A stretch of DNA of 64,000 nt from Chitinophagaceae bacterium (GCA_016713085.1 JADJPV010000002.1:1575352-1639351); one strand, 5' to 3'. Positions 6,573 to 40,525 are shown, counted from the first letter of the stretch. Numbers and translations: made by a program. Notes: a model not told the origin generated them from the letters alone.

Positions 6573-7952
6573 ATGATGAAAAAAAGAACACAGTCCCGCC
6601 GGGAGTTTCTGAGCAATTCGATTAAAGCATCTGCAATATTTGCGTTGCCGTCAATTGTTCCTTTCAGTGTGTTTGGAAAAAATGCACCAGGTAACCGCAT
6701 TAACGTTGCGGCAATTGGCTCCGGCCGTATTTCACGCATTCACGATATGCCCGGTGTATGGGGTCAGAATTATGCTCAGCTGATGGCAGTGTGTGACCTG
6801 GATTCAAACAGAGCTGCGGAAGGAAAAACATTGGTGAATGATTTTTACTCAAAAAGAGATGGCAAACCATTTGACGGTGTAAAAGTTTATACAGATTACC
6901 GTGAACTGTTACAGAATAAAGATATTGATGCAGTATTGATAAGTACACCCGATCATACTCATGCCATGATTGGAGCTGCAGCAGCACGTGCAGGTAAACA
7001 TATTTATATGCAGAAGCCTGCATCACTTACGATTGCTGAAGGAAGAATCATCAGCAATGTGATACAGAAAAGCGGCGTAAAATTTCAGATAGGAAGTCAG
7101 CAGCGGAGCAGTGAACAATTCCGTTATGCAGCAGAGTTGGTTCGTAATGGCCGCATTGGAAAACTGAAAACTGTTTATGTTGGTTTGCCCGGTGATCCGC
7201 CCGGAGGAAAGACAGACGAAATGCCTGTTCCAAAAAACTTGGATTATGATATGTGGCTTGCATCAACTCCTGAAGTGTATTATACTGAAGACCGTGTACA
7301 TCCGCAAGTTGGTTATGGTCGTCCCGGTTGGTTACGTTGTGAGCAGTTTGGTGCAGGTATGATAACCGGATGGGGTGCACATCATATTGATTCTGCACAT
7401 TGGGGCATGGGTATGGAAAGCAGCGGACCTGTTGAAATCTGGAATGAAAAAGCTGAGTTTGCAACAGGTGGATTGTGGAATGTACATGGAGTATTTAAAA
7501 CCGGTGCAACCTATGCAAACGGTGTTACAATGATTGTAAGCAACGAGTTTCAAAACGGGATAAAATTTGAAGGAACAACCGGATGGATTTTTGTTTCAAG
7601 AGGAGATTACCAGGTTACATCATCTGATGGCAATGCCGGAACAGCACAGGCGAAGAAAATTGATGCCAGCGATCCAAAGCTCCTTACATCTGTAATAGCT
7701 GAAAACGAATTTCATTTTACTGTAAGTAAAGATCATCATGCCAACTGGCTGGAAGCGATCCGTGATAATAAAAAAACAATTGCACCGGTTGAAGAAGCAC
7801 ACCGTGCCTGCTCAGCCTGCCTGCTGCATCATATAGCTATGAAGCTAAACAGGAAATTATACTGGGACCCCGCAAAGGAGCAATTTAATAATGATGATGA
7901 AGCAAATAAACTCCTGTCGAGGCCACAACGCAAAGGCTATGAAGTGAAATAG
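6573..7952 (+). CDS. Gfo/Idh/MocA family NAD(P)-dependent oxidoreductase with twin-arginine (Tat) signal
   Basis: SRREFL Tat motif; IGSG Rossmann motif; DAVLISTPDHTH, KHIYMQKP, QIGSQQRS and GWGAHHID motifs. Confidence 0.92.
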   Translation: MMKKRTQSRREFLSNSIKASAIFALPSIVPFSVFGKNAPGNRINVAAIGSGRISRIHDMPGVWGQNYAQLMAVCDLDSNRAAEGKTLVNDFYSKRDGKPFDGVKVYTDYRELLQNKDIDAVLISTPDHTHAMIGAAAARAGKHIYMQKPASLTIAEGRIISNVIQKSGVKFQIGSQQRSSEQFRYAAELVRNGRIGKLKTVYVGLPGDPPGGKTDEMPVPKNLDYDMWLASTPEVYYTEDRVHPQVGYGRPGWLRCEQFGAGMITGWGAHHIDSAHWGMGMESSGPVEIWNEKAEFATGGLWNVHGVFKTGATYANGVTMIVSNEFQNGIKFEGTTGWIFVSRGDYQVTSSDGNAGTAQAKKIDASDPKLLTSVIAENEFHFTVSKDHHANWLEAIRDNKKTIAPVEEAHRACSACLLHHIAMKLNRKLYWDPAKEQFNNDDEANKLLSRPQRKGYEVK

Positions 7953-7982
7953 ATTTTTTTACTGAATTTAATCAACCATAAC

Positions 7983-8747
7983 ATGAAAAAAATACTTGCC
8001 ATATTATTCCTGCTCCCGCTTTACACTTTGGCGCAGCAGGACTCAGTCTTATCAGGAGTTTACAATTGGGCTGAGCTAGCTTCATCAACAATCAATAAAA
8101 TTTCTTCCACTGTATTGCTGGAAGGAAAAACCCATGACTTTAAATGGATACAGTTAACTGCAAACAGTTTAAATCCATCACCTGTAAGAATCAAACAAAC
8201 TGTTCCCAAAAACCAGGAACAATTAATTATTGTGAAAACAGGTACCCTGCAAATTGGCTTGGGCGATTCAACCTTTGCACTGAATGCCGGAAGTGTAGCA
8301 ATATTAATGCCCGGAAAAAAGATTTTACTCAACAGTATAAAGCCCTGCAGTTTTTATATTATGAAATACCGGAGCAAAGCCCCAAAGGATCTGCAAAGGG
8401 GAAAAAACAATGGAGGCTCGTTTATAAAATTCTGGGAAGCCATTCCGTTTAAACCAAACAATAACGGCGGTGGCAGAAGAGATTTTTTTGAACATCCTAC
8501 TGCCATGCAGAAAAGATTTGAAATGCATGTTACCACGCTGAAAGAAGGACTGAGAAGCCACGATCCACATACGCACCGTGCAGAAGAAATAATAATCATG
8601 ATAGAAGGTGATACCGAAATGCAGATAGGTGAAAATTTCGCCAAAGGAAAAACAGGTGATTTCTTTTATCTTGGAAGTAATATACTTCATGGAATAAAAA
8701 ATATTGGTACAAAACCCTGCATGTATTTTGCCATTCAGTTTGAATAA
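7983..8747 (+). CDS. Secreted bicupin-domain protein
   Basis: Signal peptide and two cupin repeats; the second keeps HDPHTHRAEEIIIMIEG ... HGIKN metal ligands. Confidence 0.8.
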   Translation: MKKILAILFLLPLYTLAQQDSVLSGVYNWAELASSTINKISSTVLLEGKTHDFKWIQLTANSLNPSPVRIKQTVPKNQEQLIIVKTGTLQIGLGDSTFALNAGSVAILMPGKKILLNSIKPCSFYIMKYRSKAPKDLQRGKNNGGSFIKFWEAIPFKPNNNGGGRRDFFEHPTAMQKRFEMHVTTLKEGLRSHDPHTHRAEEIIIMIEGDTEMQIGENFAKGKTGDFFYLGSNILHGIKNIGTKPCMYFAIQFE

Positions 8748-8779
8748 TGATAAATGAACATTTCATTAAAGCATAAAGA

Positions 8780-9861
8780 ATGAAAAAATATTATTCATTT
8801 TATTCATCTGTACTTCGATGAATAGTTTTGCTCAATATCCCCGTGTGGATATCCCCGGTTCTGAAGTAAGAAAAATTACTTCTTCCATTGTTACCGGGCA
8901 GGAATATGAATTGCATATCCTGTTACCGGGCAGTTACAGGAGCAGTACAAAAAAATTTCCTGTTGTGTACCTGATGGATTCTCAATGGGATTTCTCACTG
9001 GTAAAATCAATTTTCGGTCAGCAGTATTATGATGGCTTTATTCCTGAACTGATTATTGTGGGCGTAACATGGGGAGGAATAAAACCAAACCCCGACAGTT
9101 TAAGAGCAAGAGATTATACTTCAACTAAAGAAACAAGAGCTCCGCAAAGTGGTGGTGCAGATAAATTTCTTTCCTTCATAAAAAATGAACTGTTCCCGTT
9201 TATTGAAAAAAATTATAAAGCCGATAGTGCAAACAGAATATTAATGGGCTGTTCACTTGGAGGATTATTTACAGTATATACATTGTTCACTCAACCGGAA
9301 CTGTTTACAGGCTATGCCGCTGCCAGCCCTGCTATTGGCTGGGATAGGGAAGTAATGTACCAGTTTGAAAAAGAGTTTTATCAGAAAAAATTATCCAAAC
9401 CTGTGCGTTTGTATATGACGGTTGGAGATGTGGAAAGCAGCCGACCTGCTTATGAAAAATTTGCCGCACAAATGATCGGCAGGAACTACTCATCAGTAAG
9501 CATTCAATCAAAAATATTAGAAAACACCGGGCATTCAGGAACAAAATCAGAAACATACAGCAGAGGTCTTCAATATATTTTTGAACGGCCGAAGCTGAGT
9601 CTTGATACAAAGCTGCTGGATAAATATGCCGGTATTTATGTATCAGCAACGGGAAACAGAATTGAAATAAAAAAGGAAAACGGCAGCCTCGTTTTATTCT
9701 ATTCCCCTTTCAATAAATACCAGCTGTATGCATCAACTGAAACAGGCTTTTATTCAACGTCAGAATTTCTGAACATTGATTTCAAAATAGAAAACGGCAA
9801 AGCAAGTGCCTTGCAATTGGAAAGATTTGGCGGGACTGATTTATTAAAAAAGATTAACTAA
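8780..9861 (+). CDS. Alpha/beta-hydrolase esterase (IroE/Fes-like) with C-terminal DUF3471-like domain; single-base frameshift in the signal peptide
   Basis: GCSLGG nucleophile elbow, RARDYT, FPVVYLMD. ATG at 8780 (MKK) is one base out of frame with ILFILFICTSMNSFAQ, with the break in an A-run. Confidence 0.8.
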
Positions 9862-17148: not shown

Positions 17149-18693
17149 ATGAAAAATTATTTGATATTGTTATTATGCATCTGCTTTACATCAGAGATAA
17201 CTGCACAGTCTGTTTCTGTTGACAGCAGTAAGTATCCCCGACTCGTTACATTCACTGCTCAACAGGATCAGGCACAAATGATGCAGCAGTTGGGTATTAA
17301 AAAATTAAGACCCGGCCCAAGCGGTAATGCGTCCGCTCCCAATCATGCTAATTACGATGAAGCAATAGCAAACCCCTGTCCGTTATTACCTGATGCACTG
17401 ATTACCAAAAAAGGTAAAAAAGTAACCAATGCTGAACAGTGGTGGCAACAGAGACGCCCGGAAATTGTGGAAGATTTTGAAACTGAAATGTATGGCAGAA
17501 TTCCATCAAAAACACCAAACGTTACATGGACTGCAAAAATCACCGATTATGAATTTGTTGGACGCATTCCTGTTATTGCAAAACAATTAGTGGGTCATGT
17601 TGATAACAGCGAATATCCTCTCATTCATGTAAACATCAACATGGTACTTGTATTACCATTGAATGTAAAAGGCCCTGTTCCTGTATTGATCATGTTTGGA
17701 TTCCCTTCATTACCATCTCCTGCACAACCCAACCCTGCAGACATGGAAAAGCTCAATTCAACTTTCAAAGAGATGATGATACAGCAGAACCCGGAGATGA
17801 AAGCCATCTTCGATCGCTATCCTGCTTATTCACCTGTTACACGATTGCCCGGTTCAAACTTTTTTGCACCTGCCCCAACAGGCGACTCACCCCCTACTGA
17901 ACAATTGCTGGCTGCAGGTTGGGGATACTGTGTGATAGAGCCAAACAGTATCCAGGCTGATAATGGTGCAGGTTTAACAAGAGGTATTATTGGTTTAGTA
18001 AATAAAGGACAACCACGTAAGCCTGACGATTGGGGTTCATTAAGAGCATGGGGCTGGGGTGCATCACGTGCATTGGATTATTTTGAAACAGATACATTGA
18101 TCAACACAAAAAGAGTTGGTATTGAAGGCGTATCCCGTTATGGAAAAGCAGCATTGGTAACAATGGCTTTTGATCAGCGATTTGCAATTGTATTAATCGG
18201 TTCTTCAGGAAAAGGTGGTGCAACACTGCAGCGCCGTGTTTTTGGTGAAGCGGTTGAAAGTCTTGCAGGCAGTGGTGAGTATCACTGGATGTCGGGAAAT
18301 TATTTAAAATACGCAACTGCAGAATCTTCCTTTGGCAGTAAAACAGGTTGCGATCTTCCCGTTGACTCACATGAACTGTTGGCACTTTGTGCACCAAGGC
18401 CAGTGTTCGTCAGTTATGGAATACCGGAGAAAGGAGATGCCAATTGGCTCGATCAAATGGGAAGCTATAAAGCAACCATTGCAGCAGGTACCGTATTTAA
18501 ATTATTAGGAGCAAAAGATTTGGGTGTTAGCAATGATTATAACACAGAACAAATGCCGCCGGTGCTTACAGGCTTGCTCGATGGTGAACTGGCATGGCGG
18601 CAGCACGACGGAGGACATACTGATGCTCCTAACTTTAAATTCTTTATACCATGGGCCAACCGTGTGTTGAAGTATGAAAAAGTTGCCCGTTAA
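17149..18693 (+). CDS. CE15 glucuronoyl esterase-like protein
   Basis: GVSRYGKA catalytic motif, WGSLRAWGWGASRALDY, LPVDSHELLALCAPRP and RQHDGGH. Confidence 0.85.
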   Translation: MKNYLILLLCICFTSEITAQSVSVDSSKYPRLVTFTAQQDQAQMMQQLGIKKLRPGPSGNASAPNHANYDEAIANPCPLLPDALITKKGKKVTNAEQWWQQRRPEIVEDFETEMYGRIPSKTPNVTWTAKITDYEFVGRIPVIAKQLVGHVDNSEYPLIHVNINMVLVLPLNVKGPVPVLIMFGFPSLPSPAQPNPADMEKLNSTFKEMMIQQNPEMKAIFDRYPAYSPVTRLPGSNFFAPAPTGDSPPTEQLLAAGWGYCVIEPNSIQADNGAGLTRGIIGLVNKGQPRKPDDWGSLRAWGWGASRALDYFETDTLINTKRVGIEGVSRYGKAALVTMAFDQRFAIVLIGSSGKGGATLQRRVFGEAVESLAGSGEYHWMSGNYLKYATAESSFGSKTGCDLPVDSHELLALCAPRPVFVSYGIPEKGDANWLDQMGSYKATIAAGTVFKLLGAKDLGVSNDYNTEQMPPVLTGLLDGELAWRQHDGGHTDAPNFKFFIPWANRVLKYEKVAR

Positions 18694-18733
18694 TTGTATT
18701 GCTGATTCTATAACATTATTGAAAAGGAAAATC

Positions 18734-19522
18734 ATGCTCAAAAAAAGGATACTACTTACAGCTTCTGCATTTTTGTTTACAGTTATTTTACATGCACAAA
18801 CACAATCTCCATGGTATGGAAAAAAATGTGCCGTTGTACTTACATATGACGATGCAATAGATCAGCACCTGGATAATGCAGTTCCATTGTTGGATTCACT
18901 GGGATTGAAAGCAACGTTTTATATAACTGCTTTTTCACAATCAGTACAAACAAGAATAAATGACTGGAAAAAACTTTCTGTTACGGGTCACGAATTAGGT
19001 AATCATACATTGTTTCATCCCTGTATTGGTAACAGCCCCGGCCGTGAGTGGGTTTCACCCGAAAACAATTTGAATAATTATACCGTGAAGCGTATGGAAA
19101 ATGAAATACGCATGACGAATACCTTTCTGCAGGCACTTGATGGAAAAATCAAACGCACATTTGCATTCACCTGCGGCGATATGAAGATTGCTGACTCCTC
19201 TTTCATTAATGGAATGAAAAAAGATTTTGTTGCGGCAAGAGCAGTACGTAACGAAATGCATAAGATTAACGAAGTGGATCTGTACAATATAGATTGCTAC
19301 ATGGTAAACAATAACAGCTTTGAAGAAATGAAAGCATGGGTAGATAAAGCAATTGAAACCAACTCACTGCTTGTTATACTTTTTCACGGTGTAGGCGGTG
19401 GCAACAGTTTAAATGTTTCGCTGACAGATCACCATAAATTGCTTACTTATTTAAAGCAAAAACAAGAAAGCATCTGGGTTGCGCCCATGATCACAGTTGC
19501 TGAACATATTAACGAATGGTAA
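18734..19522 (+). CDS. Polysaccharide deacetylase (NodB/CE4-like), signal peptide
   Basis: VLTYDDA, HELGNHTLFHPC and ILFHGV motifs. Start placed at MLKKRILL. Confidence 0.85.
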   Translation: MLKKRILLTASAFLFTVILHAQTQSPWYGKKCAVVLTYDDAIDQHLDNAVPLLDSLGLKATFYITAFSQSVQTRINDWKKLSVTGHELGNHTLFHPCIGNSPGREWVSPENNLNNYTVKRMENEIRMTNTFLQALDGKIKRTFAFTCGDMKIADSSFINGMKKDFVAARAVRNEMHKINEVDLYNIDCYMVNNNSFEEMKAWVDKAIETNSLLVILFHGVGGGNSLNVSLTDHHKLLTYLKQKQESIWVAPMITVAEHINEW

Positions 19523-29184: not shown

Positions 29185-29957
29185 ATGTCGATTATGCTTG
29201 CAACGCATAGAAGAGAGAAGATATTAGACTTACTGAGGGAAGATGGTTCGGCCAAAGTATTAAATCTGGCAAAAATCTTTAAGGTAACCGAGGTAACCAT
29301 CCGGCAGGACCTTGAAAAGCTGGAAAAGGATGGCTCCATAACCCGTGAACATGGTGGAGCTTATATTAAAAACATTAAAGATCAGGTTCAGACTTTTTCG
29401 TTAGTGCACCAGGAGAACCTTGATAAAAAGAGTTGATCGCAGAAAAATGCATTGAGTTCATTGAAAGCGGGGATACAATTATATTGGATTCTGGTACCAC
29501 CACTACCGAAGTGGCCAAAAAACTGAAAGGCATGAAAGGCCTTACCGTAATTACCAATGCGCTCAATATAGCATTAATGCTTGGAGCAGAGCCTGGAATT
29601 GAAGTGATTGTTACCGGCGGAGAGTTTAAACCGCCTACTCTGTCATTAACAGGCCAAAAGGCTGCAGATTTTTTCAAAGGGCTGCATGTTCAAAAGTTGT
29701 TTTTGGCTACAGCGGGTATATCATTAAAAGCCGGTCTTACCTACCCAAGTATAAGTGATATAGTAGTTAAAAAAGCAATGATTGAAGCAGCCGAAACAAC
29801 ATATCTGCTGGCCGACTCTACTAAAATAGGCAAAGCCGCTTTTGCAAGCCTGGGTGCTTTATCCCTGATTGATTACATCATAACAGATGCCGGCATTGAA
29901 GAAAAGCACAAACAGGTATTTAAGGATAATGAAATTGAATTAATAATAGCAAGCTGA
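29185..29957 (+). CDS. DeoR/GlpR family transcriptional regulator; single-base frameshift near 29427
   Basis: HTH ...VTEVTIRQDLEKLE...HGGA in the first frame. The sensor domain (IILDSGTTT, ITNALNIA, LADSTKIG) is in the shifted frame; the join ENLDKK/ELIAEK lies in an A-run. Confidence 0.9.
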
Positions 29958-29962
29958 TAACA

Positions 29963-31378
29963 ATGGCAAATACTAAACAAACAACACTGGGCGTAATCAT
30001 TGGCAACCGTGATTTCTTTCCTGACAAACTGGTTGCTGAGGCAAGAAACGAAATTCTTGACTTGTTCAAAAAACTTAACATCACTCCCGTTTTATTGAGC
30101 GATGCCGATTCAAAACTGGGTGGTGTAGAAACTTTTGCAGAAGCACAAAAATGTGCGGCTCTGTTCAATAAACATGCGGAAGAAATTGACGGTATCCTTG
30201 TAGTCCTTCCCAACTTTGGTGACGAAAAAGGTGTGGCTGAAACCATTAAATGGTCAGGCTTGAATGTTCCTGTTTTAATACAGGCTTATCCTGATGATTT
30301 GGGCAAAATGGATGTTGTAAACAGAAGGGATGCCTGGTGTGGTAAGATTTCAGTTTGCAATAATTTATATCAGTTTGGTATAAAATATTCCTTAACAACA
30401 AAGCATGTAGTAAGTCCGAAAAACGAATCGTTTATCAGCGACTTAAAACAATTTACAGCAGTATGCCGTGTGGTGAAAGGCTTACGTAAAGTGCGCATTG
30501 GTGCAGTTGGAGCAAGACCGGGAGCATTTAATACAGTCCGTTACAGTGAAAAGATTTTACAGCGCAATGGTATTTCGGTTACTACGGTTGATTTATCAGA
30601 AATATTAGGCAATGCCAACAAACTAACTGCTGATGATAAATCAGTAAAAGAAAAATTAGAAAAAATTCATGCGTATACAAATACAGGATTAACGCCACCG
30701 GATAAATTAGTACAGATAGCAAAACTGGATGTAGTGCTGGCCAATTTTATGGCTGAAAATTATCTGGACGCATCTGCTATTCAATGCTGGACATCGTTGC
30801 AGCAAAACTATGGCTGTAATGTGTGCACCAGTATGAGTATGATGAGTGAGCATATGCTGCCATCTGCCTGTGAAGTAGATGTTACCGGAACATTAAGTAT
30901 GTATGCTATGCAATTGGCAAGCGGCTCCCCTTCTGCCCTGGTTGACTGGAATAATAACTATGCAGATGACGATACAAAATGCGTATTGTTTCACTGTGGT
31001 AACTGGGCCAAGTCATTTTTGCCCGATATAACCATCAGCACCGCTCCAATCCTTGGTACTTCTGTAGGTACTGAAAATACATATGGAGCATTAGATGGAC
31101 GTACACCAGCCATGCCTCTTACTTATGGCCGAATCAGTACAGATGATTGTAAAGGAATTATCAAAGCATATATTGGTGAAGGTGAATTAACCAACGATGC
31201 ATTAAACACATTTGGTAACAGAGCAGTAGCGCAAATTGACAACCTGCAGGGTTTAATGCAGTATGTGTGCCGTAATGGCTTTGAACACCATGTTGTAATG
31301 AATGCCAGTAAAACAGCAGGCATTTTAAAAGAAGCATTTGAAAATTATTTGGGATGGGAAACCTATTCTCATTCCTGA
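29963..31378 (+). CDS. L-fucose/L-arabinose isomerase family protein (candidate D-apiose isomerase)
   Basis: NFGDE, DAWCGKISV, AIQCW, SACEVD, LFHCGN and GFEHHV motifs. Confidence 0.8.
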   Translation: MANTKQTTLGVIIGNRDFFPDKLVAEARNEILDLFKKLNITPVLLSDADSKLGGVETFAEAQKCAALFNKHAEEIDGILVVLPNFGDEKGVAETIKWSGLNVPVLIQAYPDDLGKMDVVNRRDAWCGKISVCNNLYQFGIKYSLTTKHVVSPKNESFISDLKQFTAVCRVVKGLRKVRIGAVGARPGAFNTVRYSEKILQRNGISVTTVDLSEILGNANKLTADDKSVKEKLEKIHAYTNTGLTPPDKLVQIAKLDVVLANFMAENYLDASAIQCWTSLQQNYGCNVCTSMSMMSEHMLPSACEVDVTGTLSMYAMQLASGSPSALVDWNNNYADDDTKCVLFHCGNWAKSFLPDITISTAPILGTSVGTENTYGALDGRTPAMPLTYGRISTDDCKGIIKAYIGEGELTNDALNTFGNRAVAQIDNLQGLMQYVCRNGFEHHVVMNASKTAGILKEAFENYLGWETYSHS

Positions 31379-31399
31379 CTTGGAAACTGAACAGGTAAA

Positions 31400-32224
31400 A
31401 TGACAACAAAAGAATTAAAACAAAAATCGCTGATATACCGTAAGAAGATTTTACAGTACATCACCAAAGCAAAAGCCGGGCATACCGGCGGCAGTTTGTC
31501 GAGTATCGATATTTTAAATGTACTGTATAACGAAGTTTTGAATGTATCTCCGCAAAATTTCACTTCACCTGACAGGGACAGGTATGTGCAAAGCAAGGGG
31601 CATTGTGTGGAAGCATTATATGTAGTACTTGCAGACAAAGGTTTTTTTCCTGAAGATGATTTGAATACCCTCTGCCAATATAAATCCCACTACATTGGCC
31701 ATCCAACAAAAAAAATAAAAGGCGTTGAACAAAATACCGGTGCATTAGGACATGGATTGCCTATTTGTGTTGGAACAGCACTCGCTGCAAAAATGGATGA
31801 AAAAGATTACAGAGTATTTACATTACTGGGAGATGGCGAATTACCTGAAGGCTCAAACTGGGAAGCGGCTTTGACAGCGGCACATTACAAACTGGATAAC
31901 CTTTGTGCTGTTATTGACAAAAACAATTTACAGATTTCCGGCACTACTGCTGAAGTTTGCAATACAGACCCATTGGATAAAAAATTTGAGAGTTTTGGCT
32001 GGGCCGTAAAAGAAATAAACGGCAATGATGTGGATGAATTAAAAGCAGCGTTCAACAGCTTACCCTTTGAAAAGGGAAAGCCTTCGGTAATCATTGCACA
32101 CACGATAAAAGGTAAGGGTGTAAGCTATATGGAGAACGATGTAAAATGGCATCATGGTGTACCTGATAAAGAACAGTACGAATCAGCGCAGAAAGAATTA
32201 GATCATGCATTAACCCTGATATAA
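31400..32224 (+). CDS. Transketolase N-terminal (TPP-binding) subunit, AptA-like
   Basis: GHTGGSLS, SKGH, TGALGHGL, GDGELPEGSNWEA, HTIKGKG and WHHG motifs. Confidence 0.92.
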   Translation: MTTKELKQKSLIYRKKILQYITKAKAGHTGGSLSSIDILNVLYNEVLNVSPQNFTSPDRDRYVQSKGHCVEALYVVLADKGFFPEDDLNTLCQYKSHYIGHPTKKIKGVEQNTGALGHGLPICVGTALAAKMDEKDYRVFTLLGDGELPEGSNWEAALTAAHYKLDNLCAVIDKNNLQISGTTAEVCNTDPLDKKFESFGWAVKEINGNDVDELKAAFNSLPFEKGKPSVIIAHTIKGKGVSYMENDVKWHHGVPDKEQYESAQKELDHALTLI

Positions 32225-32225
32225 A

Positions 32226-33200
32226 ATGGCAGATCAGATCAATACAAATAGTTACAAGGCAAACTTAGAAATATTTTCAGAAACATTACAGCGCTTAGCT
32301 GCAGATGATAAGAATGTTATTGCTGTAACCAGTGACAGCCGTGGCTCAGGAAAACTGGTGCCCTTTGGGAAAAAATTCCCGAAACAGATTGTGGAAATTG
32401 GTATTGCTGAACAAAATTTAGTGGGTGTTGCTGCCGGGTTAGCGGCATGCGGCAAAAAAGTATTCGCCGTTTCACCTGCCTGTTTTTTAACCGCAAGGGC
32501 ATTAGAACAAATAAAGAATGATGTCGCCTACAGTGATAATCCCGTTAATGTGATTGGCATAAGTGCTGGCGTCAGTTATGGTGCATTGGGAAGTACACAT
32601 CACAGTTTACATGATTATGCTGCCTTAAGAGCAATCAATAATATAATGATTGTAGCACCGGCTGATAATTTTGAAACCGAACAGGCTATTGAGCTGGCAT
32701 CTAAAACCAATCAGCCAATTTATCTGCGCTTTGGCAAAAAGCCAATGCCTCCTTTGAAAGCAATAAATAATGATGTATTTGTATTTGGAAAAGGAAGAAT
32801 AATTACAGAAGGAAATGATGTTGCAATCATTGCAACCGGAGAAACTGTTTACCCGGCATTACAGGCGGCGGCTAAATTAAAAAGTGAAGGAGTTTATGCT
32901 ACCGTCATCAGTATGCATACCATTAAACCTTTGGATACAGAATTATTACAGACTGTTGCCGGTAAATGTAAAGCAATTGTAACGGTAGAAGAGCATAGTG
33001 TGAATGGTGGATTGGGTGAAGCCTGTGCTTCTTACCTGCTGCAGAACCAGTTTGCAAAACCATTTAAAATTATTGGAATACCTGATGAGTACACCGTCAC
33101 AGGATCACAACAGGATATTTTTAATCATTATGGAATAAATGAAGAAGGTATTGCTGAAGAGGTGAATAAATTATTAGAAAAAAAACCGGTGCACTCTTAA
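32226..33200 (+). CDS. Transketolase C-terminal subunit, AptB-like
   Basis: EIGIAEQNLVGVAAGLA, GSTHHSLHD, YLRFGK, TIKPLD and VEEHSVNGGLGEA motifs. Confidence 0.92.
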   Translation: MADQINTNSYKANLEIFSETLQRLAADDKNVIAVTSDSRGSGKLVPFGKKFPKQIVEIGIAEQNLVGVAAGLAACGKKVFAVSPACFLTARALEQIKNDVAYSDNPVNVIGISAGVSYGALGSTHHSLHDYAALRAINNIMIVAPADNFETEQAIELASKTNQPIYLRFGKKPMPPLKAINNDVFVFGKGRIITEGNDVAIIATGETVYPALQAAAKLKSEGVYATVISMHTIKPLDTELLQTVAGKCKAIVTVEEHSVNGGLGEACASYLLQNQFAKPFKIIGIPDEYTVTGSQQDIFNHYGINEEGIAEEVNKLLEKKPVHS

Positions 33201-33295
33201 GTTATTTGTTGCATTAGAGACTATTAACAGGTTATTTTAAGTACCGGCCACAGGAATATATTTTAACGATTGAATTACAAAGTAAAATTTGTTCA

Positions 33296-34246
33296 ATGCA
33301 AAAACGGGTGCCATTTTCTCCATTGCTGCTATTATTGTTAATGCTGTTTTTTTTTACTCAATGTAAAACCAAAACAACAGACAAAAAACAGCACAAGATT
33401 GCTATTGTTGTTTCTACACTCAATAATCCCTGGTTTGTTTTCCTTGCAGAAACAGCTGCTGCAAAATCAAAGGCGCTGGGTTATGAAGCGAAGATTTTTG
33501 ATTCCCAAAACAACACAGCTTTAGAAAGTGATCATTTCGAAAATATCATTGTTTCGGGTTTTGATGCAATTCTTTTTAATTCTACCGATGCAAATGGGTC
33601 TGTAGCCAATGTATTAAAAGCAAAAGCTGCCGGTGTACCGGTGTTTTGCATGGACAGGGAAGTAAACAGCAACGATCCCACCTCACAAATTTTAAGCGAC
33701 AGTTATTCCGGTGCAGTTGCTATTGGAAAATATTTTACTCAGCAATTAAATAAAAAAGGAACCTATGTAGAACTGCTCGGTATTGTGGGTGATAATAATA
33801 CCTGGGCAAGAAGCAAGGGTTTTCACAGTGTGGTGGATAATTACACGGGGTTAAAAATGGTTGCGCAGCAAAGTGCCGACTTTGACCGCAACAAAGCAAT
33901 GGAAGTAATGGAATCCATTTTGCAGGCCCACCCTGGTATTGATGCCGTTTTTTGTGGTAACGATGGCATGGCAAGCGGAGCCTACCAGGCATTGGTTTCA
34001 ATCGGAAAGGCAAATAAAATAAAAGTATATGGATTTGACGGTGCAGAAGATGTAATTACATCTATTGGCGAAAATAAAATTGCAGCAACCGGCATGCAGT
34101 TCCCTAAAGTAATGGCCGAAACGGCCGCACAGTTTGCAGATGAATATATAAAAGGAAGAAGAGATTTTCCGGAAAAAATACCTGTTGCAGTTGAATTGGT
34201 TACTGTAAAAAATATTGCCGATTACATTGCTTACGGTAAAAAATAA
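33296..34246 (+). CDS. Sugar ABC transporter substrate-binding protein (RbsB-like), probable lipoprotein
   Basis: [30 protein letters not shown] and GFDG motifs; hydrophobic leader ending in FTQC. Confidence 0.9.
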
Positions 34247-34253
34247 ACAACCA

Positions 34254-34883
34254 ATGAAGAAACTTGTAGCATATATTCTTATTGCAGCCATCACAGGTTT
34301 AGTGGGTTATAACTCAGTTTACTTTAAAAAGCTTAGTGATGTAAGAAACTCATCTGTTGAGAAATTTGATGCCGTAACTTTTTCTAAACAATTGTGGTCC
34401 GAAAAAATGCCACAAAAACTTGACAGTGCTGTTGATTTAGCAGTTTTGATAAACGCAGTTACTGCTGACAAAGAAGCTGCACTTAACAATTATTCAAATG
34501 CTTTGGGCATTGGTAATTACCGGTACGCATTGATTAAAACCCAGGCAACTGTTACAGCTGTAAATGAAGATGAATTACTGATTCAAATATCTGTTTCCGA
34601 CTCTGCACTGAATGCTGTACTTGCCACAGAATATATCTATGGCAATGCCATCCGTGATGCCTCTGCATTGGTAGATCTGAAAGATTTCTCTAACACATCC
34701 GATTTAAACAGTATTTCTGAAGAACTGAATAAAACAGTGAGAACAACTGTATTGCCCATATTCAGGAAAAGTGTAAAGAAAGGAGATAAACTGAAAATCA
34801 CTGCTGCAGTTGAATTAAACAAAGAGCATATTAAATGGAACGGATTGGAACTGCTTCCTCTCCGCCTGCAAATAGTAAACTAA
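34254..34883 (+). CDS. DUF2291 family protein
   Basis: N-terminal anchor and GNAIRDAS.LVDLKDFSNTSDLNSISEELN motif; lies between the SBP and the ATPase. Confidence 0.75.
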   Translation: MKKLVAYILIAAITGLVGYNSVYFKKLSDVRNSSVEKFDAVTFSKQLWSEKMPQKLDSAVDLAVLINAVTADKEAALNNYSNALGIGNYRYALIKTQATVTAVNEDELLIQISVSDSALNAVLATEYIYGNAIRDASALVDLKDFSNTSDLNSISEELNKTVRTTVLPIFRKSVKKGDKLKITAAVELNKEHIKWNGLELLPLRLQIVN

Positions 34884-36389
34884 ATGCTGGAAGCAAAAAA
34901 TATATCAAAGAAATTTTCGGGTGTTACTGCCCTTTCAAACATCAATCTTGTATTGCATCCCGGCAAGGTAAATGCAATCATTGGTGAAAATGGAGCAGGT
35001 AAATCTACTTTGATGAAAATTTTTTCAGGAGTATACACTCAATATGAAGGCCAGATTATTTATAACGGAAAGCCGGTTAAATTTTCCGGTACAAAAGCAG
35101 CCGAAGATGCAGGCATTGCCATCATTCACCAGGAGCTGAACCTTGTTCCGCATTTAACCATCGCAGAAAATATTTTTCTGGGCCGGGAGCTTACCAATGC
35201 CTTTGGTGTGCTGGATAAAAAAAGGATGAATGAAATTACAAAGCAATTACTTTCAAGATTAAATCTTTCCATAAGCCCCGATACAAAAATTGTTGAAATA
35301 AAAGTTGGCCAGCAGCAGTTAGTGGAAATAGCAAAAGCATTATATTCCAATGCATCTGTTATTATAATGGACGAACCTACTTCTGCCATCAGCGACAAAG
35401 AAGTGGATAACCTGTTTGCCATTATTGCTCAGTTAAAAAGTGAAGGAAAAACAATCGCTTATATCTCTCATAAGTTTAAAGAGCTTTTTGCCATTGCCGA
35501 CCACTATGTTGTATTAAGAGATGGCGCTACTGCAGATGCTGGCGATATGCAACAGGCAACACAGGAATCGTTGATTCAAAAAATGACAGGCAGAGATGTT
35601 ACACTGCAAAAGCGAACAGGGAATGCAACTGAAGCAGAAATATTACTTTCTGCTAATAAAATATACCTCCGTCATCCTGAAATAAAAACCACCTGTTTGC
35701 TCAGTAATATTTCCTTCAATTTATACAAAGGCGAAATTTTAGGGGTTTATGGATTGATGGGTGCAGGCAGAACAGAACTGATGGAAACCATTTTTGGACT
35801 TCATCCTAAAAATGCAAGTGGTGAAATATTCGTTGAAGAGTCAGTAAAAAAAATCAAGTCCCCCTGCGACGCTATTAAGGCCGGTATTGCTTTGGTACCG
35901 GAGGATAGAAAATTGCAGGGCTTAATTCTTAATCAATCTGTAAGTAAAAACATAAGCCTTACCATTTTACAGCAATTGCAGCAATGGGGCATTATGCTGA
36001 GTAATACAAAAGAGAAAGCGTTATCGGTAAATTATATCAGCAGGCTTGGCATTAAAACGTCATCGGGCAATAATGCTGCACAAAACCTGAGTGGTGGTAA
36101 TCAGCAAAAAATTGTTATTGCAAAATGGCTGGCCACCAATCCAAAAATATTGTTGCTTGATGAACCTACCCGTGGTATCGACATTACTGCAAAATCAGAA
36201 ATATACAAGTTGATGAAATCACTTGCAGCTGAGGGTCTTGGTATCATCATGGTTTCATCTGAGCTGCCTGAAATACTGGCTGTATCAGACAGAATTCTGG
36301 TAATGTGTGAAGGAGAGCTGACAGCCAATCTGCCAATTGCTGCTGCTAACGAACAGGAAATTCTAAAATATGCCATCCATAAAAACTGA
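34884..36389 (+). CDS. Sugar ABC transporter ATP-binding protein (RbsA-like, two domains)
   Basis: GENGAGKST, MDEPTSA, VPEDRK, LSGGNQQK and LDEPTRGID motifs. Confidence 0.95.
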   Translation: MLEAKNISKKFSGVTALSNINLVLHPGKVNAIIGENGAGKSTLMKIFSGVYTQYEGQIIYNGKPVKFSGTKAAEDAGIAIIHQELNLVPHLTIAENIFLGRELTNAFGVLDKKRMNEITKQLLSRLNLSISPDTKIVEIKVGQQQLVEIAKALYSNASVIIMDEPTSAISDKEVDNLFAIIAQLKSEGKTIAYISHKFKELFAIADHYVVLRDGATADAGDMQQATQESLIQKMTGRDVTLQKRTGNATEAEILLSANKIYLRHPEIKTTCLLSNISFNLYKGEILGVYGLMGAGRTELMETIFGLHPKNASGEIFVEESVKKIKSPCDAIKAGIALVPEDRKLQGLILNQSVSKNISLTILQQLQQWGIMLSNTKEKALSVNYISRLGIKTSSGNNAAQNLSGGNQQKIVIAKWLATNPKILLLDEPTRGIDITAKSEIYKLMKSLAAEGLGIIMVSSELPEILAVSDRILVMCEGELTANLPIAAANEQEILKYAIHKN

Positions 36390-36397
36390 TTGAACGA

Positions 36398-37378
36398 ATG
36401 ACAACAACTGCATTATCATATAAAAGTAACTTAAGTAAATTTCAATCGCTGATTGCACTGCTGGTATTATGCATTGTATTAAGTTTTCTTACCGATAAGT
36501 TTTTTACTGCTGCCAATGGAGTAAATGTACTGAGACAGGTTGCAGTAAATGTTTGCATCGCCACCGGTATGACGTTAATAGTACTTACAGCAGGTATTGA
36601 TTTATCTGTCGGTTCTGTTTTAGCTTTATGCGGCGCTATCACTGCCGGTTTATTAAAAAATGGCATGCAGTTTCCCTCAGCAGACCTTTTTATTGGCTTC
36701 ACAATTTTAGGTGCTGTACTGGGTGCAATTATTATTGGTGGTTTACTGGGTTTATTCAACGGACTTGTGATTACCAAATTTAAAGTACCGCCCTTTGTGG
36801 CCACTTTAGCCATGCTAACTATTGCAAGAGGTTTCACCATGTTGTATACAGGAGGCCACCCTATCAGCAACCTTGGAAATAATTTTGCATATATCGGTGC
36901 AGGTTCTTTTATTGGTATACCTGTGCCGGTTTGGATTGCAACGATTGTAGTTTTGCTGGCGGTTTTTATTACCAAAAAAACAAAACTCGGAAGATATATC
37001 TATGCCATTGGTGGCAATGAAACTGCCGCTAAACTTTCGGGTATTCGCATTAACAGGGTAAAATTAATAGTGTATAGTTTGGGTGCAGCACTGGCTGCTG
37101 TTGGTGGTGTGATTGTTACTTCAAGGTTAGATTCTGCACAACCCAATGCCGGTATCAGTTACGAACTGGATGCTATTGCAGCAGTTGTCATTGGCGGCAC
37201 TTCATTAAATGGTGGTAAAGGAAGTGTGTGGGGTACTGTTATTGGCGCTGTAATTATCGGCGTATTAAATAATGGTTTGGTATTGCTGAATGTTTCTCCT
37301 TTCTGGCAGCAGGTAGTGAAAGGTGGAGTGATATTACTGGCAGTTATTATTGATAAAATGGGTGATAAAAAAGAATAA
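36398..37378 (+). CDS. Sugar ABC transporter permease (RbsC-like)
   Basis: GIDLSVGS, VPPFVATL, GRYIYAIGGNE and YELDAIAAVVIGGTSL.GGKG motifs. Confidence 0.95.
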   Translation: MTTTALSYKSNLSKFQSLIALLVLCIVLSFLTDKFFTAANGVNVLRQVAVNVCIATGMTLIVLTAGIDLSVGSVLALCGAITAGLLKNGMQFPSADLFIGFTILGAVLGAIIIGGLLGLFNGLVITKFKVPPFVATLAMLTIARGFTMLYTGGHPISNLGNNFAYIGAGSFIGIPVPVWIATIVVLLAVFITKKTKLGRYIYAIGGNETAAKLSGIRINRVKLIVYSLGAALAAVGGVIVTSRLDSAQPNAGISYELDAIAAVVIGGTSLNGGKGSVWGTVIGAVIIGVLNNGLVLLNVSPFWQQVVKGGVILLAVIIDKMGDKKE

Positions 37379-37384
37379 ACTATT

Positions 37385-38908
37385 TTGCAAAACAAAAAAT
37401 ATATACTGGCAATAGACCAGGGTACCAGCTCTACGAAGTCGCTAATATTTGATTCAGATGGCAACGCAATTGCCAAAGGTTCAGAACCCCTTCACAGCAA
37501 TTACCTTGATAATAGTTTTGTGGAACAGGACCCTGAAGCTATATATCAGAATGTATTGACATCAGTAAAAAAATGTTTACAACAATTTTACGAAAAGGGT
37601 TTTAAAGAAACAGATATAGCTGCCATAGGTATAGACAATCAACGGGAAACATTTGTTATCTGGGATAAAGATGGCAAACCACTATATCCAGCCGTGGTAT
37701 GGCAATGCAAACGTTCGGTGCAGGTATGTGAGCAGTTAAAAGAAAAAGGTTTGTCAGCAAGCATACAGCAAAAAACAGGCCTGGTGATTGACCCCTATTT
37801 TTCTGCTACTAAACTTATCTGGTTGTTTCAGAATAATGAAACCATCAGAGATGCAGTTAAAAGCGGCAATGCTTTTTTCGGAACAATTGATACCTGGTTA
37901 TTATACAAATTAACAAACGGAAAAGAATACGCAACAGATTACACAAATGCATCCCGTACATTACTTTTTAACCTGCATACACTGCAATGGGATAAAGAAT
38001 TAATTGATGCTTATGGACTGACAGGTATTCAATTACCGAAAATAAAATCATCCTCCTTTTTGTTTGGAGAAACGCTGCTCAACGGATTGTTTAAAAATGC
38101 TGTTCCCATAACTGCACTTATCGGAGATTCACATGCAGCCGCATTTGGCGAAGGTTGTTTTGAAACAGGCACCGCCAAAGCCACATTAGGAACAGGTTGC
38201 AGTATTTTACTGAATATAGGTAGCAAACCATTGCCTTCAAAAAACGGAATGGTTACAACCGTATGCTGGAGTATAGAAAACAGAATTGACTTTGCTTACG
38301 AAGGTGTGATTGTTTCATGCGGCGCTGCAATTGAATGGATGAAAAACGAATTACATCTTTTTAATGACAGCAAAGAAACAGAAGCCATGGCCAATGCTGT
38401 TGCAGATAATGGCGGGGTGTATTTAATTCCGGCATTCAGTGGTTTGGGTTCTCCACATTGGCAAATGGACAGAAGGGCCTCGCTTTCAGGAATGAGTTTC
38501 AGCACAACTAAAAATCATGTTGTAAGAGCGGCACTTGAATCTATCCCCTATCAGATAATGGACGTGGTAACTGCTATGGAAAAAGACGCAGGACTGTCAT
38601 TAAAAGAGCTCAATGCGGATGGAGGTATCAGCTCCAACCTGTTTGTGATTCAGTTAATCGCTGATTTGCTGAATAAAAAGGTAGCTACCATTGGCATGCC
38701 TGACGTTTCTGCGTTGGGGGCAGCATTGCTGGCAGGCCTTAGCTCCGGGGTATATGAAAGTATTGATGCTCTGAAGAAAATGAAAACAGATAAAAAACAT
38801 TACACTCCAGCCAATACTGTTGATGCAGAAAAAAAATATAAGGGTTGGCAGCATGAAATTCAACAGTATTTAATCATAAAAAATAATCACATCAGTTCAG
38901 GCATATGA
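37385..38908 (+). CDS. FGGY carbohydrate kinase, glycerol-kinase-like (candidate apulose kinase); TTG start
   Basis: LAIDQGTSSTK, NQRET, YFSATK, TDYTNASRT, GDSHAA, KATLGTG and ADGG motifs. Confidence 0.88.
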   Translation: MQNKKYILAIDQGTSSTKSLIFDSDGNAIAKGSEPLHSNYLDNSFVEQDPEAIYQNVLTSVKKCLQQFYEKGFKETDIAAIGIDNQRETFVIWDKDGKPLYPAVVWQCKRSVQVCEQLKEKGLSASIQQKTGLVIDPYFSATKLIWLFQNNETIRDAVKSGNAFFGTIDTWLLYKLTNGKEYATDYTNASRTLLFNLHTLQWDKELIDAYGLTGIQLPKIKSSSFLFGETLLNGLFKNAVPITALIGDSHAAAFGEGCFETGTAKATLGTGCSILLNIGSKPLPSKNGMVTTVCWSIENRIDFAYEGVIVSCGAAIEWMKNELHLFNDSKETEAMANAVADNGGVYLIPAFSGLGSPHWQMDRRASLSGMSFSTTKNHVVRAALESIPYQIMDVVTAMEKDAGLSLKELNADGGISSNLFVIQLIADLLNKKVATIGMPDVSALGAALLAGLSSGVYESIDALKKMKTDKKHYTPANTVDAEKKYKGWQHEIQQYLIIKNNHISSGI

Positions 38909-40525
38909 AACAGAAATTCAAAGCCGGCTTAGCAGCTACTTTATTATTCTTGCTGTGCGGTTCTTTTCTTTGCCCAACAGCAAGTACAGCAATGGAACAG
39001 GTTTGAAGTTGTATTAAAACAAATATACAATGGCAATGCTTTTGCCAATGTAAAGCTTACCGCTAAATTTATCAGCAAAGACACGACATATATTGCAGAT
39101 GGATTTTATGATGGCGATAATACGTTTATAATCCGTTTTATGCCGGAAAAACCCGGCCATTGGACTTACGTTACCAGCAGTAACATAAAGCAACTCAACA
39201 ATCAAAAAGGAAATTTTGAATGTGTAGCTGCATCAGGCAATAATCATGGAATAGTAAGGGTAAGCAATACGTATAATTTCAAGTATGCAGATGGCAAACA
39301 ATACTATCCTGTAGGTACTACTGCTTATGCATGGAACCACATGAGTAAGCCAGTGCAGGAAATGACTTTGCAATCATTAAAACAATCTGGTTTCAATAAA
39401 GTGCGTATGTGTGTATTTCCCAAAGATTACAACCTGGTAAAAGAAGAACCCGAAATATACCCTTTCGTTTCAGCCGGAATAGAAAAAGGGCCGAATGGAA
39501 AAGAAAGAAAGGTCTGGGATTTCACCACCTTTAACCCCGCTTTTTTCCGTGTGCTGGAAAAACAAATTGATGAATTGAATCAATTGGGCATTGAAGCTGA
39601 TCTGATTCTTTTTCATCCGTATGATAAAGGCCGCTGGGGTTTTGATTCATTACCAATGGATGTAAATTTCAAATACATCAAATACATTGTTGCAAGGTTA
39701 GGCTCGTTCCGGAATGTATGGTGGTCACTTGCAAACGAATGGGATTTGGTAAAATATAAATCACATGACGATTGGATTGCGTTGTCAAAAGCTGTAGCCG
39801 AAACTGACCCCTATCATCATTTAACTTCTATACATGGAAGCACTGCAAAATATATTGAATACTGGTTGCCGTATTATACGCATGTAAGCATACAGGATGA
39901 AGGCCCGGTTTTGCATTGGGGTGCGGCTGTTATTTTACGCAATGCCTATTATAAACCTGTTATTTATGATGAAGTGGGTTATGAAGGAAACCTTGTAAGC
40001 CGCTGGGGCCGCTATAGTGGCGAAGAGATGAACTACCTGATGTGGATGGGTGCTATTGGGGGTACTTATGTTACGCATGGCGAATCGTATATGTTTAAAG
40101 ATGCAACTGATACCATCTTCTGGGCAAAAGGCGGAACATTCAAAGGTACAAGCTGGAAGAGAGCAGGGTTTTTAAGGAAGATTTTAGAAGAAGCACCCGG
40201 CCCATTAGAAGCATCTGATGGAAGCCGTGATTTTAAAACAGCATCAGGCGGCAACGGACACTTCATTGTTTATTTCGGAAAAGAGATGAATGAGTATTGG
40301 TATTTCAATCTTCCGCAAAGAAATGGTTCATTCACCAGGCTTACCGCAGGAAAAAAATATAAAGTAGAAATTATTGACACCTGGGATATGACGATTACAC
40401 CTGTTACTGCTGTATTTGAAACAACTCCGGCAGAAGATTACCGTTTATATGATAAGGATAGAAAAAAAATCAGACTGCCAGCAAAACCTTATATCGCATT
40501 GCGAATAACAGAAATTACAAAATAG
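38905..40525 (+). CDS. Secreted DUF5060/DUF4038/DUF5605 protein (apiosidase/GH140-like TIM barrel); frameshift in the signal peptide at about 38933-38970
   Basis: ATG at 38905 overlaps the kinase TGA. The mature frame reads QQVQQWNRFE...GFYDGDNTFIIRFMPEKPGHW (DUF5060), then YADGKQYYPVGTTAYAW, WWSLANEWD, PVIYDEVGYEG, THGESY and a YKVEIIDTWDMTI tail. Confidence 0.75.

Follow-up and report, generated by a model that had tools for sequence, protein, structure and literature searches.

A candidate DeoR-controlled operon for D-apiose use through the transketolase route in a Chitinophagaceae bacterium

Known apiose systems and the layout of the operon

D-apiose, a branched sugar of the plant wall, anchors the side chains of rhamnogalacturonan-II (RG-II) and its borate cross-link. 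The transketolase route of D-apiose catabolism was reportedly described, chemistry included, by Carter et al. in 2018 (Nat Chem Biol 14:696), and Ndeh et al. are said to have described BT1012 as a GH140 beta-D-apiosidase in 2017. The route employs ApsI, AplK, the AptA/AptB pair and a CUT2 importer (MetaCyc PWY-8089), and the operon reported here has the same parts list. E. coli ST131 strains with the cluster ECSF_RS02670-02715 grow on apiose, and apsI is found in Pectobacterium, whereas E. coli has two SDRs in its place (PMC13001218). BT1012, a beta-D-apiosidase of family GH140, is encoded in the RG-II PUL of Bacteroides thetaiotaomicron, and both this organism and most of the tested Flavobacterium strains release apiose but do not consume it (bioRxiv 10.64898/2026.03.13.711244). 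The first-pass annotation had called the present locus under-described. This is true only in part, since the pathway itself is published. For the Bacteroidota, we found no description, biochemistry or growth data on apiose catabolism in the literature searched.

Our analysis suggests that the operon at 29185-40525 of the window (the whole stretch of 64,000 nucleotides that was analysed) quite probably serves the use of D-apiose, under the control of a DeoR regulator, through the non-oxidative transketolase route. The host is a Lacibacter (Bacteroidota) of soil or freshwater. The Pfam domain search recovered all ten co-oriented genes on the + strand, with the same families as first named:

29185..29957, + strand: DeoR-family regulator, in two ORFs (HTH_DeoR 5.5e-16, DeoRC 2.8e-48)
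29963..31378, + strand: candidate D-apiose isomerase of the Fucose_iso_C family, 471 aa (PF02952 1.3e-27)
31400..32224, + strand: transketolase N-terminal (ThDP-binding) subunit, AptA-like (PF00456 2.2e-46)
32226..33200, + strand: transketolase C-terminal (pyrimidine-binding) subunit, AptB-like (PF02779, Transket_pyr; PF02780, Transketolase_C)
33296..34246, + strand: CUT2-type periplasmic sugar-binding lipoprotein, SBP (Peripla_BP_4 1.9e-54)
34254..34883, + strand: DUF2291 importer accessory protein, membrane-anchored or periplasmic (PF10054 1.1e-48)
34884..36389, + strand: ATPase of the ABC importer, a fusion of two nucleotide-binding domains (ABC_tran twice)
36398..37378, + strand: ABC importer permease (BPD_transp_2 2.1e-44)
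37385..38908, + strand: GlpK-like FGGY kinase, candidate apulose 4-kinase (FGGY_N/C)
38905..40525, + strand: exported GH140-like hydrolase, candidate apiosidase, with DUF5060, an Apiosidase-like barrel and DUF5605 (PF13204, formerly DUF4038; DUF5605)

Neighbouring genes of the operon overlap by 4 bp at the tightest and lie 21 bp apart at the widest, with the exception of 95 bp ahead of the SBP gene. The ATG at 34254 is a likelier start for the DUF2291 gene than the listed TTG at 34215. The operon resembles the E. coli ST131 cluster (PMC13001218) in the set and the order of SBP, DUF2291, ATPase, permease, FGGY kinase, AptA and AptB, while the regulator is of the DeoR family here and of the SorC family in the enterobacterial cluster.

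The arrangement of the module is far beyond chance. We collected 80 related loci, and both transketolase genes lie 3' of the isomerase gene in all of the 75 loci long enough to judge; the kinase is found in 57/64 loci and the full ABC set in 52/64. A DeoR gene of the matching type precedes the isomerase gene in 34/53 loci. The DeoR gene of our operon is probably co-transcribed with the other genes, because it ends 5 bp 5' of the isomerase gene. A sigma-70 promoter scan performed no better than on shuffled sequences, and a terminator scan 3' of the operon gave nothing useful. There is a single Bacteroidota-type TAnnTTTG motif at 29172, too near the annotated DeoR start for an interpretation.

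Two genes of the operon carry a one-base frameshift each, and both are most likely assembly errors. The DeoR gene is split into two ORFs (29185-29436 and 29433-29957), and its A-run at ~29425-29430 has five A here and six in four relatives, the sole gap in ~760 aligned bases. One further relative (L008) likewise shows a single gap against it, at 29427, but without an A-run there. The gene is in one frame in the relatives G003 and G001. The hydrolase ORF as listed (from 39140) lacks a signal peptide and DUF5060. The true start codon, an ATG at 38905, shares an ATGA with the kinase stop, and within a T-rich stretch, somewhere between ~38933 and ~38975, the frame changes. Two frameshifts within 11.3 kb could mean that the operon has decayed and is non-functional, with the regulator and the hydrolase being genuine pseudogenes. 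We consider this extremely improbable. Both rpoB and rpoC show this kind of split in the source assembly and are intact in a relative (G014), and the DUF6298 gene in the RG-II PUL of the source genome is also split; since rpoB and rpoC are essential, we read the frameshifts as errors of the assembly. In addition, the DeoR break is a one-base loss in a homopolymer, the hydrolase break lies in its T-rich stretch, and elsewhere both genes are conserved and free of stops. The DeoR regulator is probably intact in the living organism, despite its split ORF.

Isomerase, transketolase and kinase

The isomerase has a full-length counterpart in an enterobacterial apiose cluster. The enterobacterial clusters used for comparison are those of E. 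coli ST131, Rahnella and Serratia, Pectobacterium being absent among the top AplK homologues. The Rahnella and E. coli ST131 clusters are orthologous, with AplK, AptA and AptB 72-80% identical between them, and differ at the isomerase site, which is occupied by a PF02952 enzyme in Rahnella (472 aa, encoded between aptB and aplK) and by two SDRs in E. coli. Our isomerase is 54.5% identical to this Rahnella protein over the full length (466 residues), and identities within the Bacteroidota are 79-96%. Based on the Rahnella synteny and the report on apsI (PMC13001218), we infer that the ApsI of Carter belongs to the PF02952 family. The isomerase had been regarded as a non-orthologous substitute, a view that has to be dropped since the enterobacterial cluster employs the same family. 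No solved structure matches the isomerase at E <= 0.001. We also considered the sulfoquinovose transketolase pathway and rejected it: the lone NCBIfam match of the isomerase, SftI, scores 88 bits against a cut-off of 700, a kinase is present, and there are no sulfonate-handling genes.

The split transketolase groups with AptAB. With AptA of E. coli and of Rahnella, the N subunit shares 49% and 51% identity, respectively, while certain generic split transketolase N-subunits match it as closely (up to 49%) as AptA does; the C subunit is 41% identical to AptB of both E. coli and Rahnella. The first-pass annotation had considered that a transketolase falling outside the AptAB clade would speak against apiose. 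In our tree of the concatenated subunits, 11 Bacteroidota modules, this one included, and 3 enterobacterial AptAB pairs are separated from 7 generic split transketolases with a moderate support of 85/75.

By best match and by tree, the FGGY kinase does not come out as an orthologue of the proteobacterial AplK, whereas its pocket points to AplK. It is no nearer to AplK (35-37% identity) than to the E. coli GlpK (40%), and GlpK is its best E. coli match with 456 bits versus 329 bits for AplK. In the kinase tree the module kinase does not join AplK, and AplK itself groups with GlpK. The kinase retains R83, E84, W103, Y135 and D245 of GlpK, but its glycerol pocket is not intact, with Q246 and F270 replaced. 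The changes Q246S, Q247H and F270S are common to all 15 module kinases (15/15) and all 7 AplK proteins (7/7), whereas the true GlpKs keep Q, Q and F. The kinase scores 557 against TIGR01311, the GlpK equivalog, under the cut-off of 590, and passes the looser subfamily model NF000756. A true GlpK with 63% identity to the E. coli GlpK is encoded elsewhere in the source genome, on contig C1.

Hydrolase, RG-II loci and sugar-binding protein

The hydrolase belongs to a family distinct from the BT1012-type enzymes. An intact homologue of 532 aa in the relative G003 consists of DUF5060, Apiosidase and DUF5605 domains, and matches PDB 4N0R over its full length (E 5.6e-197, ~60-65% identity). The latter, presumably a Bacteroides/Phocaeicola protein, is a structural-genomics 'putative glycoside hydrolase', an entry without an assigned function. 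The hydrolase of our operon resembles BT1012 in having an Apiosidase-like domain above the threshold, in the D-x-E...Y-E stretch and in its siting in RG-II or apiose loci. It differs in its far lower PF13204 score (57 bits, with a cut-off of 26.5, versus 376 bits for the BT1012-type enzymes), in having DUF5060 and DUF5605 in place of Collagen_bind_2, and in having NE at the presumed acid/base position, where the BT1012-type enzymes have NGGD. The profile-profile alignment of the two types is weak (hhalign probability 32%, E 5e-4), and within this weak alignment the stretch with E350 and E354 is aligned with DxEPSYE of the BT1012-type enzymes. N271-E272, E350 and E354 are near-invariant across 42 family members.

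All the 4N0R-family homologues that we sampled (5/5) lie in apiose or RG-II loci. Those of Runella and Arcicella are within the apiose operon, a Planctomycete homologue adjoins an SBP gene and a true GH140, and the two others are located 3' of SusC/SusD in RG-II PULs. The 4N0R-family hydrolase is probably not redundant with the BT1012-type enzyme, because both types coexist in the same PULs and in the source genome.

The module is repeatedly part of a larger RG-II locus. In 12 of the 53 fully flanked loci, including that of Lacibacter sediminis, it is embedded in an RG-II PUL beside a BT1012-type GH140, and the order in these 12 loci is DUF6298, BT1012-type GH140 (376 bits), GH43, BT1020-like, the module, GH63-like and GH2. 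A full RG-II PUL of this make-up, BT1012-type GH140 included but without the module insert, also lies in the source genome, ~265 kb from the operon, so that the earlier description of the operon as self-contained was overstated. Thus the module and the RG-II PUL are separate in the source genome, while the module is inserted in the PUL in other Lacibacter/Chitinophagaceae. Among further Lacibacter isolates, L. cauensis CGMCC 1.7271 carries the operon together with the hydrolase, and L. luteus TTM-7 carries the module but no ABC importer. The proteobacterial clusters differ in this respect: our operon includes the GH140-like hydrolase, and the module of its relatives lies inside RG-II PULs.

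The importer has the gene order of the enterobacterial apiose clusters and a binding protein of the ribose-binding type. The order SBP, DUF2291, ATPase and permease is the same as in the E. coli, Rahnella and Serratia clusters, and the ATPase and the permease are 42% and 45% identical to their E. coli apiose-cluster counterparts. The SBP is a lipoprotein with Cys23 after its signal peptide. Its best solved relative is the ribose-crystallised tmRBP of Thermotoga maritima (TM0958; PDB 2FN8/2FN9; PMC2630998), with E 1e-102 and ~62% identity to 2FN8. All ten ribose-contact residues, including Trp15, are as in tmRBP, and 9/10 are as in the E. coli RBP. Among E. coli proteins it matches RbsB best, and not the apiose-cluster SBP, and its pocket differs from the pockets of the apiose-cluster SBPs in E. 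coli and Rahnella. By best match, the SBP is not an orthologue of the proteobacterial apiose SBP.

An alternative hypothesis could be that this is an operon for the uptake of ribose or of pentoses in general, in which the isomerase, the kinase and the transketolase merely feed or boost the pentose-phosphate pathway. It would fit the likeness of the SBP to tmRBP and RbsB, and the nearest NCBIfam models for the importer are indeed RbsB and RbsC. We nevertheless hold it to be very unlikely. The SBP scores 215 bits against the RbsB model NF007936, under its cut-off of 337, the operon has neither a ribokinase nor an RbsD gene, and ribose use requires no such isomerase, GlpK-like kinase or dedicated transketolase. 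In addition, the module recurs in RG-II PULs and by GH140-family genes, and ribose is not a sugar of RG-II. Rhizobium etli has an apiose-binding protein (4RY0/5IBQ) that is likewise reported to have an RBP-like pocket and to have been crystallised with both apiose and ribose. The tmRBP operon of T. maritima also carries rbsK and rbsD, both of which are absent from the operon reported here. tmRBP itself has been characterised with ribose only, and the T. maritima genome has profile matches, at the genome level, to DUF2291 (PF10054), Fucose_iso_C (PF02952) and the Apiosidase domain (PF13204).

Proposed pathway and its significance

The assignment of D-apiose as the substrate, as first proposed, is supported by the homology of the isomerase and the split transketolase, by the siting of the module in RG-II PULs and by the linkage with a second GH140-like family. 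In the proposed pathway, apiose or small apiosides from RG-II or other apiose-bearing plant glycans would enter the periplasm. There the exported GH140-like hydrolase probably liberates apiose, although this step is close to an even call. The SBP lipoprotein would bind the sugar, and the DUF2291 protein, the ATPase and the permease would import it, as homology and gene context indicate. The PF02952 isomerase would then convert apiose into apulose, and the GlpK-like kinase would phosphorylate one hydroxymethyl arm to give apulose-4-phosphate. From this, the two-subunit transketolase would transfer a C1-C2 unit to glyceraldehyde-3-phosphate, the products being xylulose-5-phosphate and DHAP, following the chemistry of the transketolase route as summarised in PMC13001218. 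The DeoR regulator probably senses a phosphorylated intermediate, as suggested by its family.

The same enzyme logic could also act on another rare sugar released from RG-II or on a small ketose precursor, e.g. a tetrose/erythrulose, hamamelose or an aceric acid product. The case for the substrate is built from 35-55% homology and context; neither the kinase nor the SBP comes out as an orthologue of the characterised apiose proteins, and RG-II PULs liberate several sugars without a known catabolic route. We regard this possibility as unlikely, however, since both the isomerase and the transketolase side with their counterparts from the enterobacterial apiose cluster, the kinase has the pocket changes of AplK, and the recurrent neighbours are two distinct GH140-family proteins, the sole family with a proven apiosidase. 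Chemical reasoning also favours apiose: the cleavage of apulose-4-phosphate would give DHAP directly, while a tetrulose phosphate would be cleaved to glycolaldehyde phosphate.

Taken as an apiose operon, the locus is very probably a fairly ordinary new example of the published pathway, as far as its gene content and homologies tell. We tentatively speculate, and rather doubt than expect, that three things hold jointly: the 4N0R family is a second apiose-releasing type with a specificity unlike that of BT1012; the Bacteroidota kinase is an apulose kinase that, independently of AplK, evolved from GlpK; and SBPs of the tmRBP type, including the 'ribose' protein of Thermotoga, physiologically carry apiose. 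A distinct specificity of the 4N0R family would explain both its coexistence with the BT1012-type GH140 and its wiring into the apiose operon. If so, apiosyl oligosaccharides, apiogalacturonan and small apiosides would be the candidate substrates of this family.

Our analysis bears on how such genes are annotated, as the default annotations, i.e. glycerol kinase, ribose transporter, transketolase and fucose isomerase, are misleading for the genes of an apiose module. The 4N0R hydrolases, a family with a solved structure but without a function, become a concrete candidate apiosidase. The conserved module for import and catabolism, which enters and leaves RG-II PULs, may mark those environmental Bacteroidota that are able to retain apiose.

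Layout and reading frames of the operon

Pfam domain matches in the window place ten genes on the + strand at 29185-40525. The genes are spaced as in an operon: neighbours overlap by up to 4 bp or lie up to 21 bp apart, except for a 95-bp gap ahead of the sugar-binding protein (SBP). The ten-gene arrangement of the first-pass annotation is confirmed. On the opposite strand, the neighbours are a GH53 gene upstream and a GH92 gene downstream.

Genes of the operon, in order
Gene 1, first in 29185-40525, +, DeoR regulator
Gene 2, 29963-31378, +, 471-aa protein with the L-fucose isomerase C-terminal domain as its sole domain
Genes 3 and 4, +, split transketolase, N-terminal half (TktN) and C-terminal half (TktC)
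Gene 5, +, Peripla_BP_4 SBP with a lipoprotein signal, Cys23
Gene 6, +, DUF2291 protein, start more likely at 34254
Gene 7, +, two-domain ABC ATPase
Gene 8, +, permease
Gene 9, +, FGGY kinase
Gene 10, start ATG 38905, +, Pfam Apiosidase-like barrel (formerly DUF4038) and DUF5605

Two of the genes are broken. The DeoR reading frame is interrupted at 29433; against five relatives the sole gap in ~760 aligned bases is a single base, placed in four of the five alignments one A short of an A6 run at ~29425-29430. The hydrolase start overlaps the stop codon of the kinase, and its frame changes somewhere within 38933-38975, which is why the ORF as listed, with its start at 39140, is missing both the signal peptide and DUF5060. 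The unbroken homologue in a congeneric genome has 532 aa and all three domains. As an internal control, rpoB and rpoC of the same assembly each lie in two frames and are intact in the complete genome of another congener (G014). Even indispensable genes thus show about one frameshift every 4-5 kb, so the two breaks are what the error rate of the assembly predicts and are most likely assembly errors. The main rpoB and rpoC copies are at C2:121407-129486, each split by one frameshift, and contig C8 (~1-5700) carries a second rpoB-rpoC copy riddled with errors and dozens of stops. The DUF6298 gene in a polysaccharide utilization locus (PUL) for rhamnogalacturonan-II (RG-II) of this genome is likewise split. 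Overall, the sequence resembles an assembly of long reads whose polishing was imperfect.

The catabolic genes and the proteobacterial apiose cluster

The apiose cluster of E. coli ST131/SE15 encodes an SBP, DUF2291, an ATPase, a permease, an FGGY kinase, a SorC regulator, a split transketolase and two SDRs; aplK is ECSF_RS02700 and aptA/aptB are RS02710/02715, and strains carrying the cluster grow on apiose (PMC13001218). According to the same source, the isomerase gene apsI belongs to the Pectobacterium cluster of Carter et al. and is absent from E. coli (PMC13001218). The Rahnella cluster, whose AplK, AptA and AptB are 72%, 80% and 76% identical to those of E. coli, encodes a 472-aa PF02952 protein between aptB and aplK, and the window isomerase is 54.5% identical to it over the whole length; no other gene of the operon has so good a match across phyla. 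The earlier idea that the isomerase is a substitute enzyme is therefore rejected. The Rahnella synteny suggests instead that a fucose-isomerase-like enzyme would be the normal entry enzyme of the apiose transketolase pathway, of the regular ApsI type. Across Bacteroidota classes the isomerase keeps 79-96% amino acid identity (median 87%) between the window and 80 related loci (L011-L090), above the kinase (53-86%) and DUF2291 (30-75%) in the same loci. A sequence search found no solved structural relative of the isomerase at E <= 0.001. In Lacibacter sediminis (L009) a 272-aa DUF6438 protein is inserted between isomerase and TktN at 8247-9065.

For the transketolase we built a tree of both subunits concatenated, from 11 copies of the module (isomerase, split transketolase and kinase, often with an ABC importer), three enterobacterial AptAB pairs, six generic Bacteroidota split transketolases with none of the module's other genes nearby, and the window genome's own second transketolase. 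The module and AptAB share one side of a branch with moderate support (85/75), and the transketolase thus does not fall outside the AptAB clade, the outcome that would have spoken against the first-pass annotation.

The kinase differs from its proteobacterial counterpart, being an AplK orthologue neither by best match nor by tree. Its best match in E. coli SE15 is GlpK (40%, 456 bits), followed by AplK (37%, 329 bits), and AplK joins GlpK, not the module kinases, in a tree whose outgroup branch is very long. The true GlpK of Lacibacter is on a different contig and is 63% identical to that of E. coli. We take the glycerol pocket of E. coli GlpK to be R83, E84, W103, Y135, D245 and F270. R, E, W, Y and D are retained at these sites in all 15 module kinases, which also carry S246, H247 and S270, exactly as 7/7 AplK do; both true GlpKs have Q, Q and F there. 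Apulose resembles glycerol with a glycoloyl group on C2, and an apulose kinase would be expected to have a GlpK-like site that F270S has opened. The class-specific columns for the three pairings (10, 11 and 8) show no bias towards grouping the module kinases with AplK, and the pocket likeness could have arisen by common descent or by convergence.

The SBP has RbsB as its best E. coli match and the Thermotoga ribose-binding protein 2FN8 (~62% identity) as its best solved relative. Ten ribose-contact residues are listed for the Thermotoga protein (PMC2630998); the window SBP, like all module SBPs that were compared, has the same residue at each of the ten. In the apiose clusters of E. coli, Serratia and Rahnella, the SBPs have pockets different from this ribose-type one. 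The SBP is therefore the point at which the case for apiose is weakest. Among 14 control genomes, Thermotoga maritima alone matches all three of the Apiosidase-like domain, DUF2291 and Fucose_iso_C, and the module may also be present at its 'ribose' locus.

Distribution and RG-II context of the module

Near-identical isomerases carry the organism names Lacibacter, Ferruginibacter and Chitinophagaceae, which assigns the window to a Lacibacter (Bacteroidota). The module is patchy: of 24 further genomes in the genus four have it, and sampling of 16 other families in the order gave no case. In an even draw of 150 Bacteroidota genomes, 3 had its type of transketolase. Species representatives yielded more than 567 loci, with hosts including Pedobacter, Mucilaginibacter, Spirosoma, Larkinella, Runella, Pontibacter, Adhaeribacter and one Flavobacterium. 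The gene order is kept as isomerase, TktN, TktC, (SBP, DUF2291, ATPase, permease), kinase. Among the related loci, the transketolase genes are present in 75/75, the kinase in 57/64 and the full importer in 52/64.

Module copies without any ABC importer were seen in 7/64 loci, the loci listed for this form being L009, L010, L016, L017, L018, L022, L023, L029 and L035. In one relative (G003) the genes immediately upstream of DeoR encode an SSF-family symporter and a 744-aa xylose-isomerase-like TIM-barrel protein, and two Chitinophagaceae loci (L014, L071) have tandem DeoR-type genes upstream of the isomerase. L038 (CALRVE020000007.1), from a MAG labelled Asaia bogorensis (Alphaproteobacteria), shares 81-89% identity with the Chitinophagaceae operon; the bin is probably contaminated or carries the wrong label.

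In L. sediminis the module sits between a BT1020-like gene and GH63-like/GH2 genes, with DUF6298, a GH140 of the type of the apiosidase BT1012 (Apiosidase 376 bits, plus Collagen_bind_2) and GH43 just upstream. This arrangement is found in 12 of 53 fully flanked loci, L. sediminis included. The window's genome has the matching RG-II PUL outside the window, at C2:1331005-1342481 (DUF6298, GH140, GH43, BT1020-like, GH63-like, GH2; 80-94% identity to L. sediminis), where only 130 bp, and no module, separate the BT1020-like gene from the GH63-like gene. The module therefore behaves as a movable cassette, and it is found either within an RG-II PUL or alone behind DeoR, as in the window. In B. thetaiotaomicron BT1012 frees apiose from RG-II and the sugar is then secreted; most Flavobacterium RG-II degraders leave apiose unused (bioRxiv 10.64898/2026.03.13.711244), consistent with the rarity of the module in Flavobacterium.

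The terminal hydrolase and the apiose reading

The hydrolase matches PF13204 with only 57 bits. Over its full length, the intact homologue shares ~60-65% identity with PDB 4N0R, an entry titled 'putative glycoside hydrolase' without assigned function, in a family of more than 4,000 members named only as DUF5060 or DUF5605 proteins. All five homologues sampled for context lie in an apiose or RG-II setting. In Runella and Arcicella the gene is part of the operon and separates TktC from the SBP; in a Planctomycete its neighbours are an SBP and a BT1012-type GH140; and in two RG-II PULs, both with a BT1012-type GH140 and DeoR and one with the module, it directly follows SusC/SusD. The family keeps N271-E272, E350 and E354 (positions as in the G003 homologue) near-invariant. 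Profile comparison with the BT1012 type is weak (E 5e-4), aligning DEVGYE with DxEPSYE but NE with NGGD. The window hydrolase is thus only distantly related to the proven type, alongside which it occurs, and the most economical reading would give it a specificity related to apiose yet distinct from that of the proven type.

Several loci encode, beside the apiose module, proteins with the Sde182 nucleoside-hydrolase-like domain (PF07632, former DUF1593), one of them between isomerase and transketolase; a Planctomycete protein combines this domain with a BT1012-type GH140 in a single chain. Such proteins could act on apiosides as a further furanosidase. The window's genome was searched for the family and gave no match.

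Sde182-domain proteins in related loci
L107 (Runella), 4045-5550 and 17788-19197
L109 (Arcicella), 2190-3710 and 6450-8051
L108 (Sedimentisphaerales), 2770-5502

The apiose interpretation proposed earlier is supported by the match of isomerase and transketolase to the apiose cluster and by the RG-II/GH140 context. We consider it probable for the catabolic core, while the hydrolase is an evenly balanced candidate for an apiosidase. The apiose transketolase pathway itself is already published. What is notable here is the evidence for the isomerase family being the regular ApsI type, one pocket signature common to two GlpK-like kinase lineages, an SBP with a ribose-type pocket, and a 4N0R family consistently wired to apiose genes.
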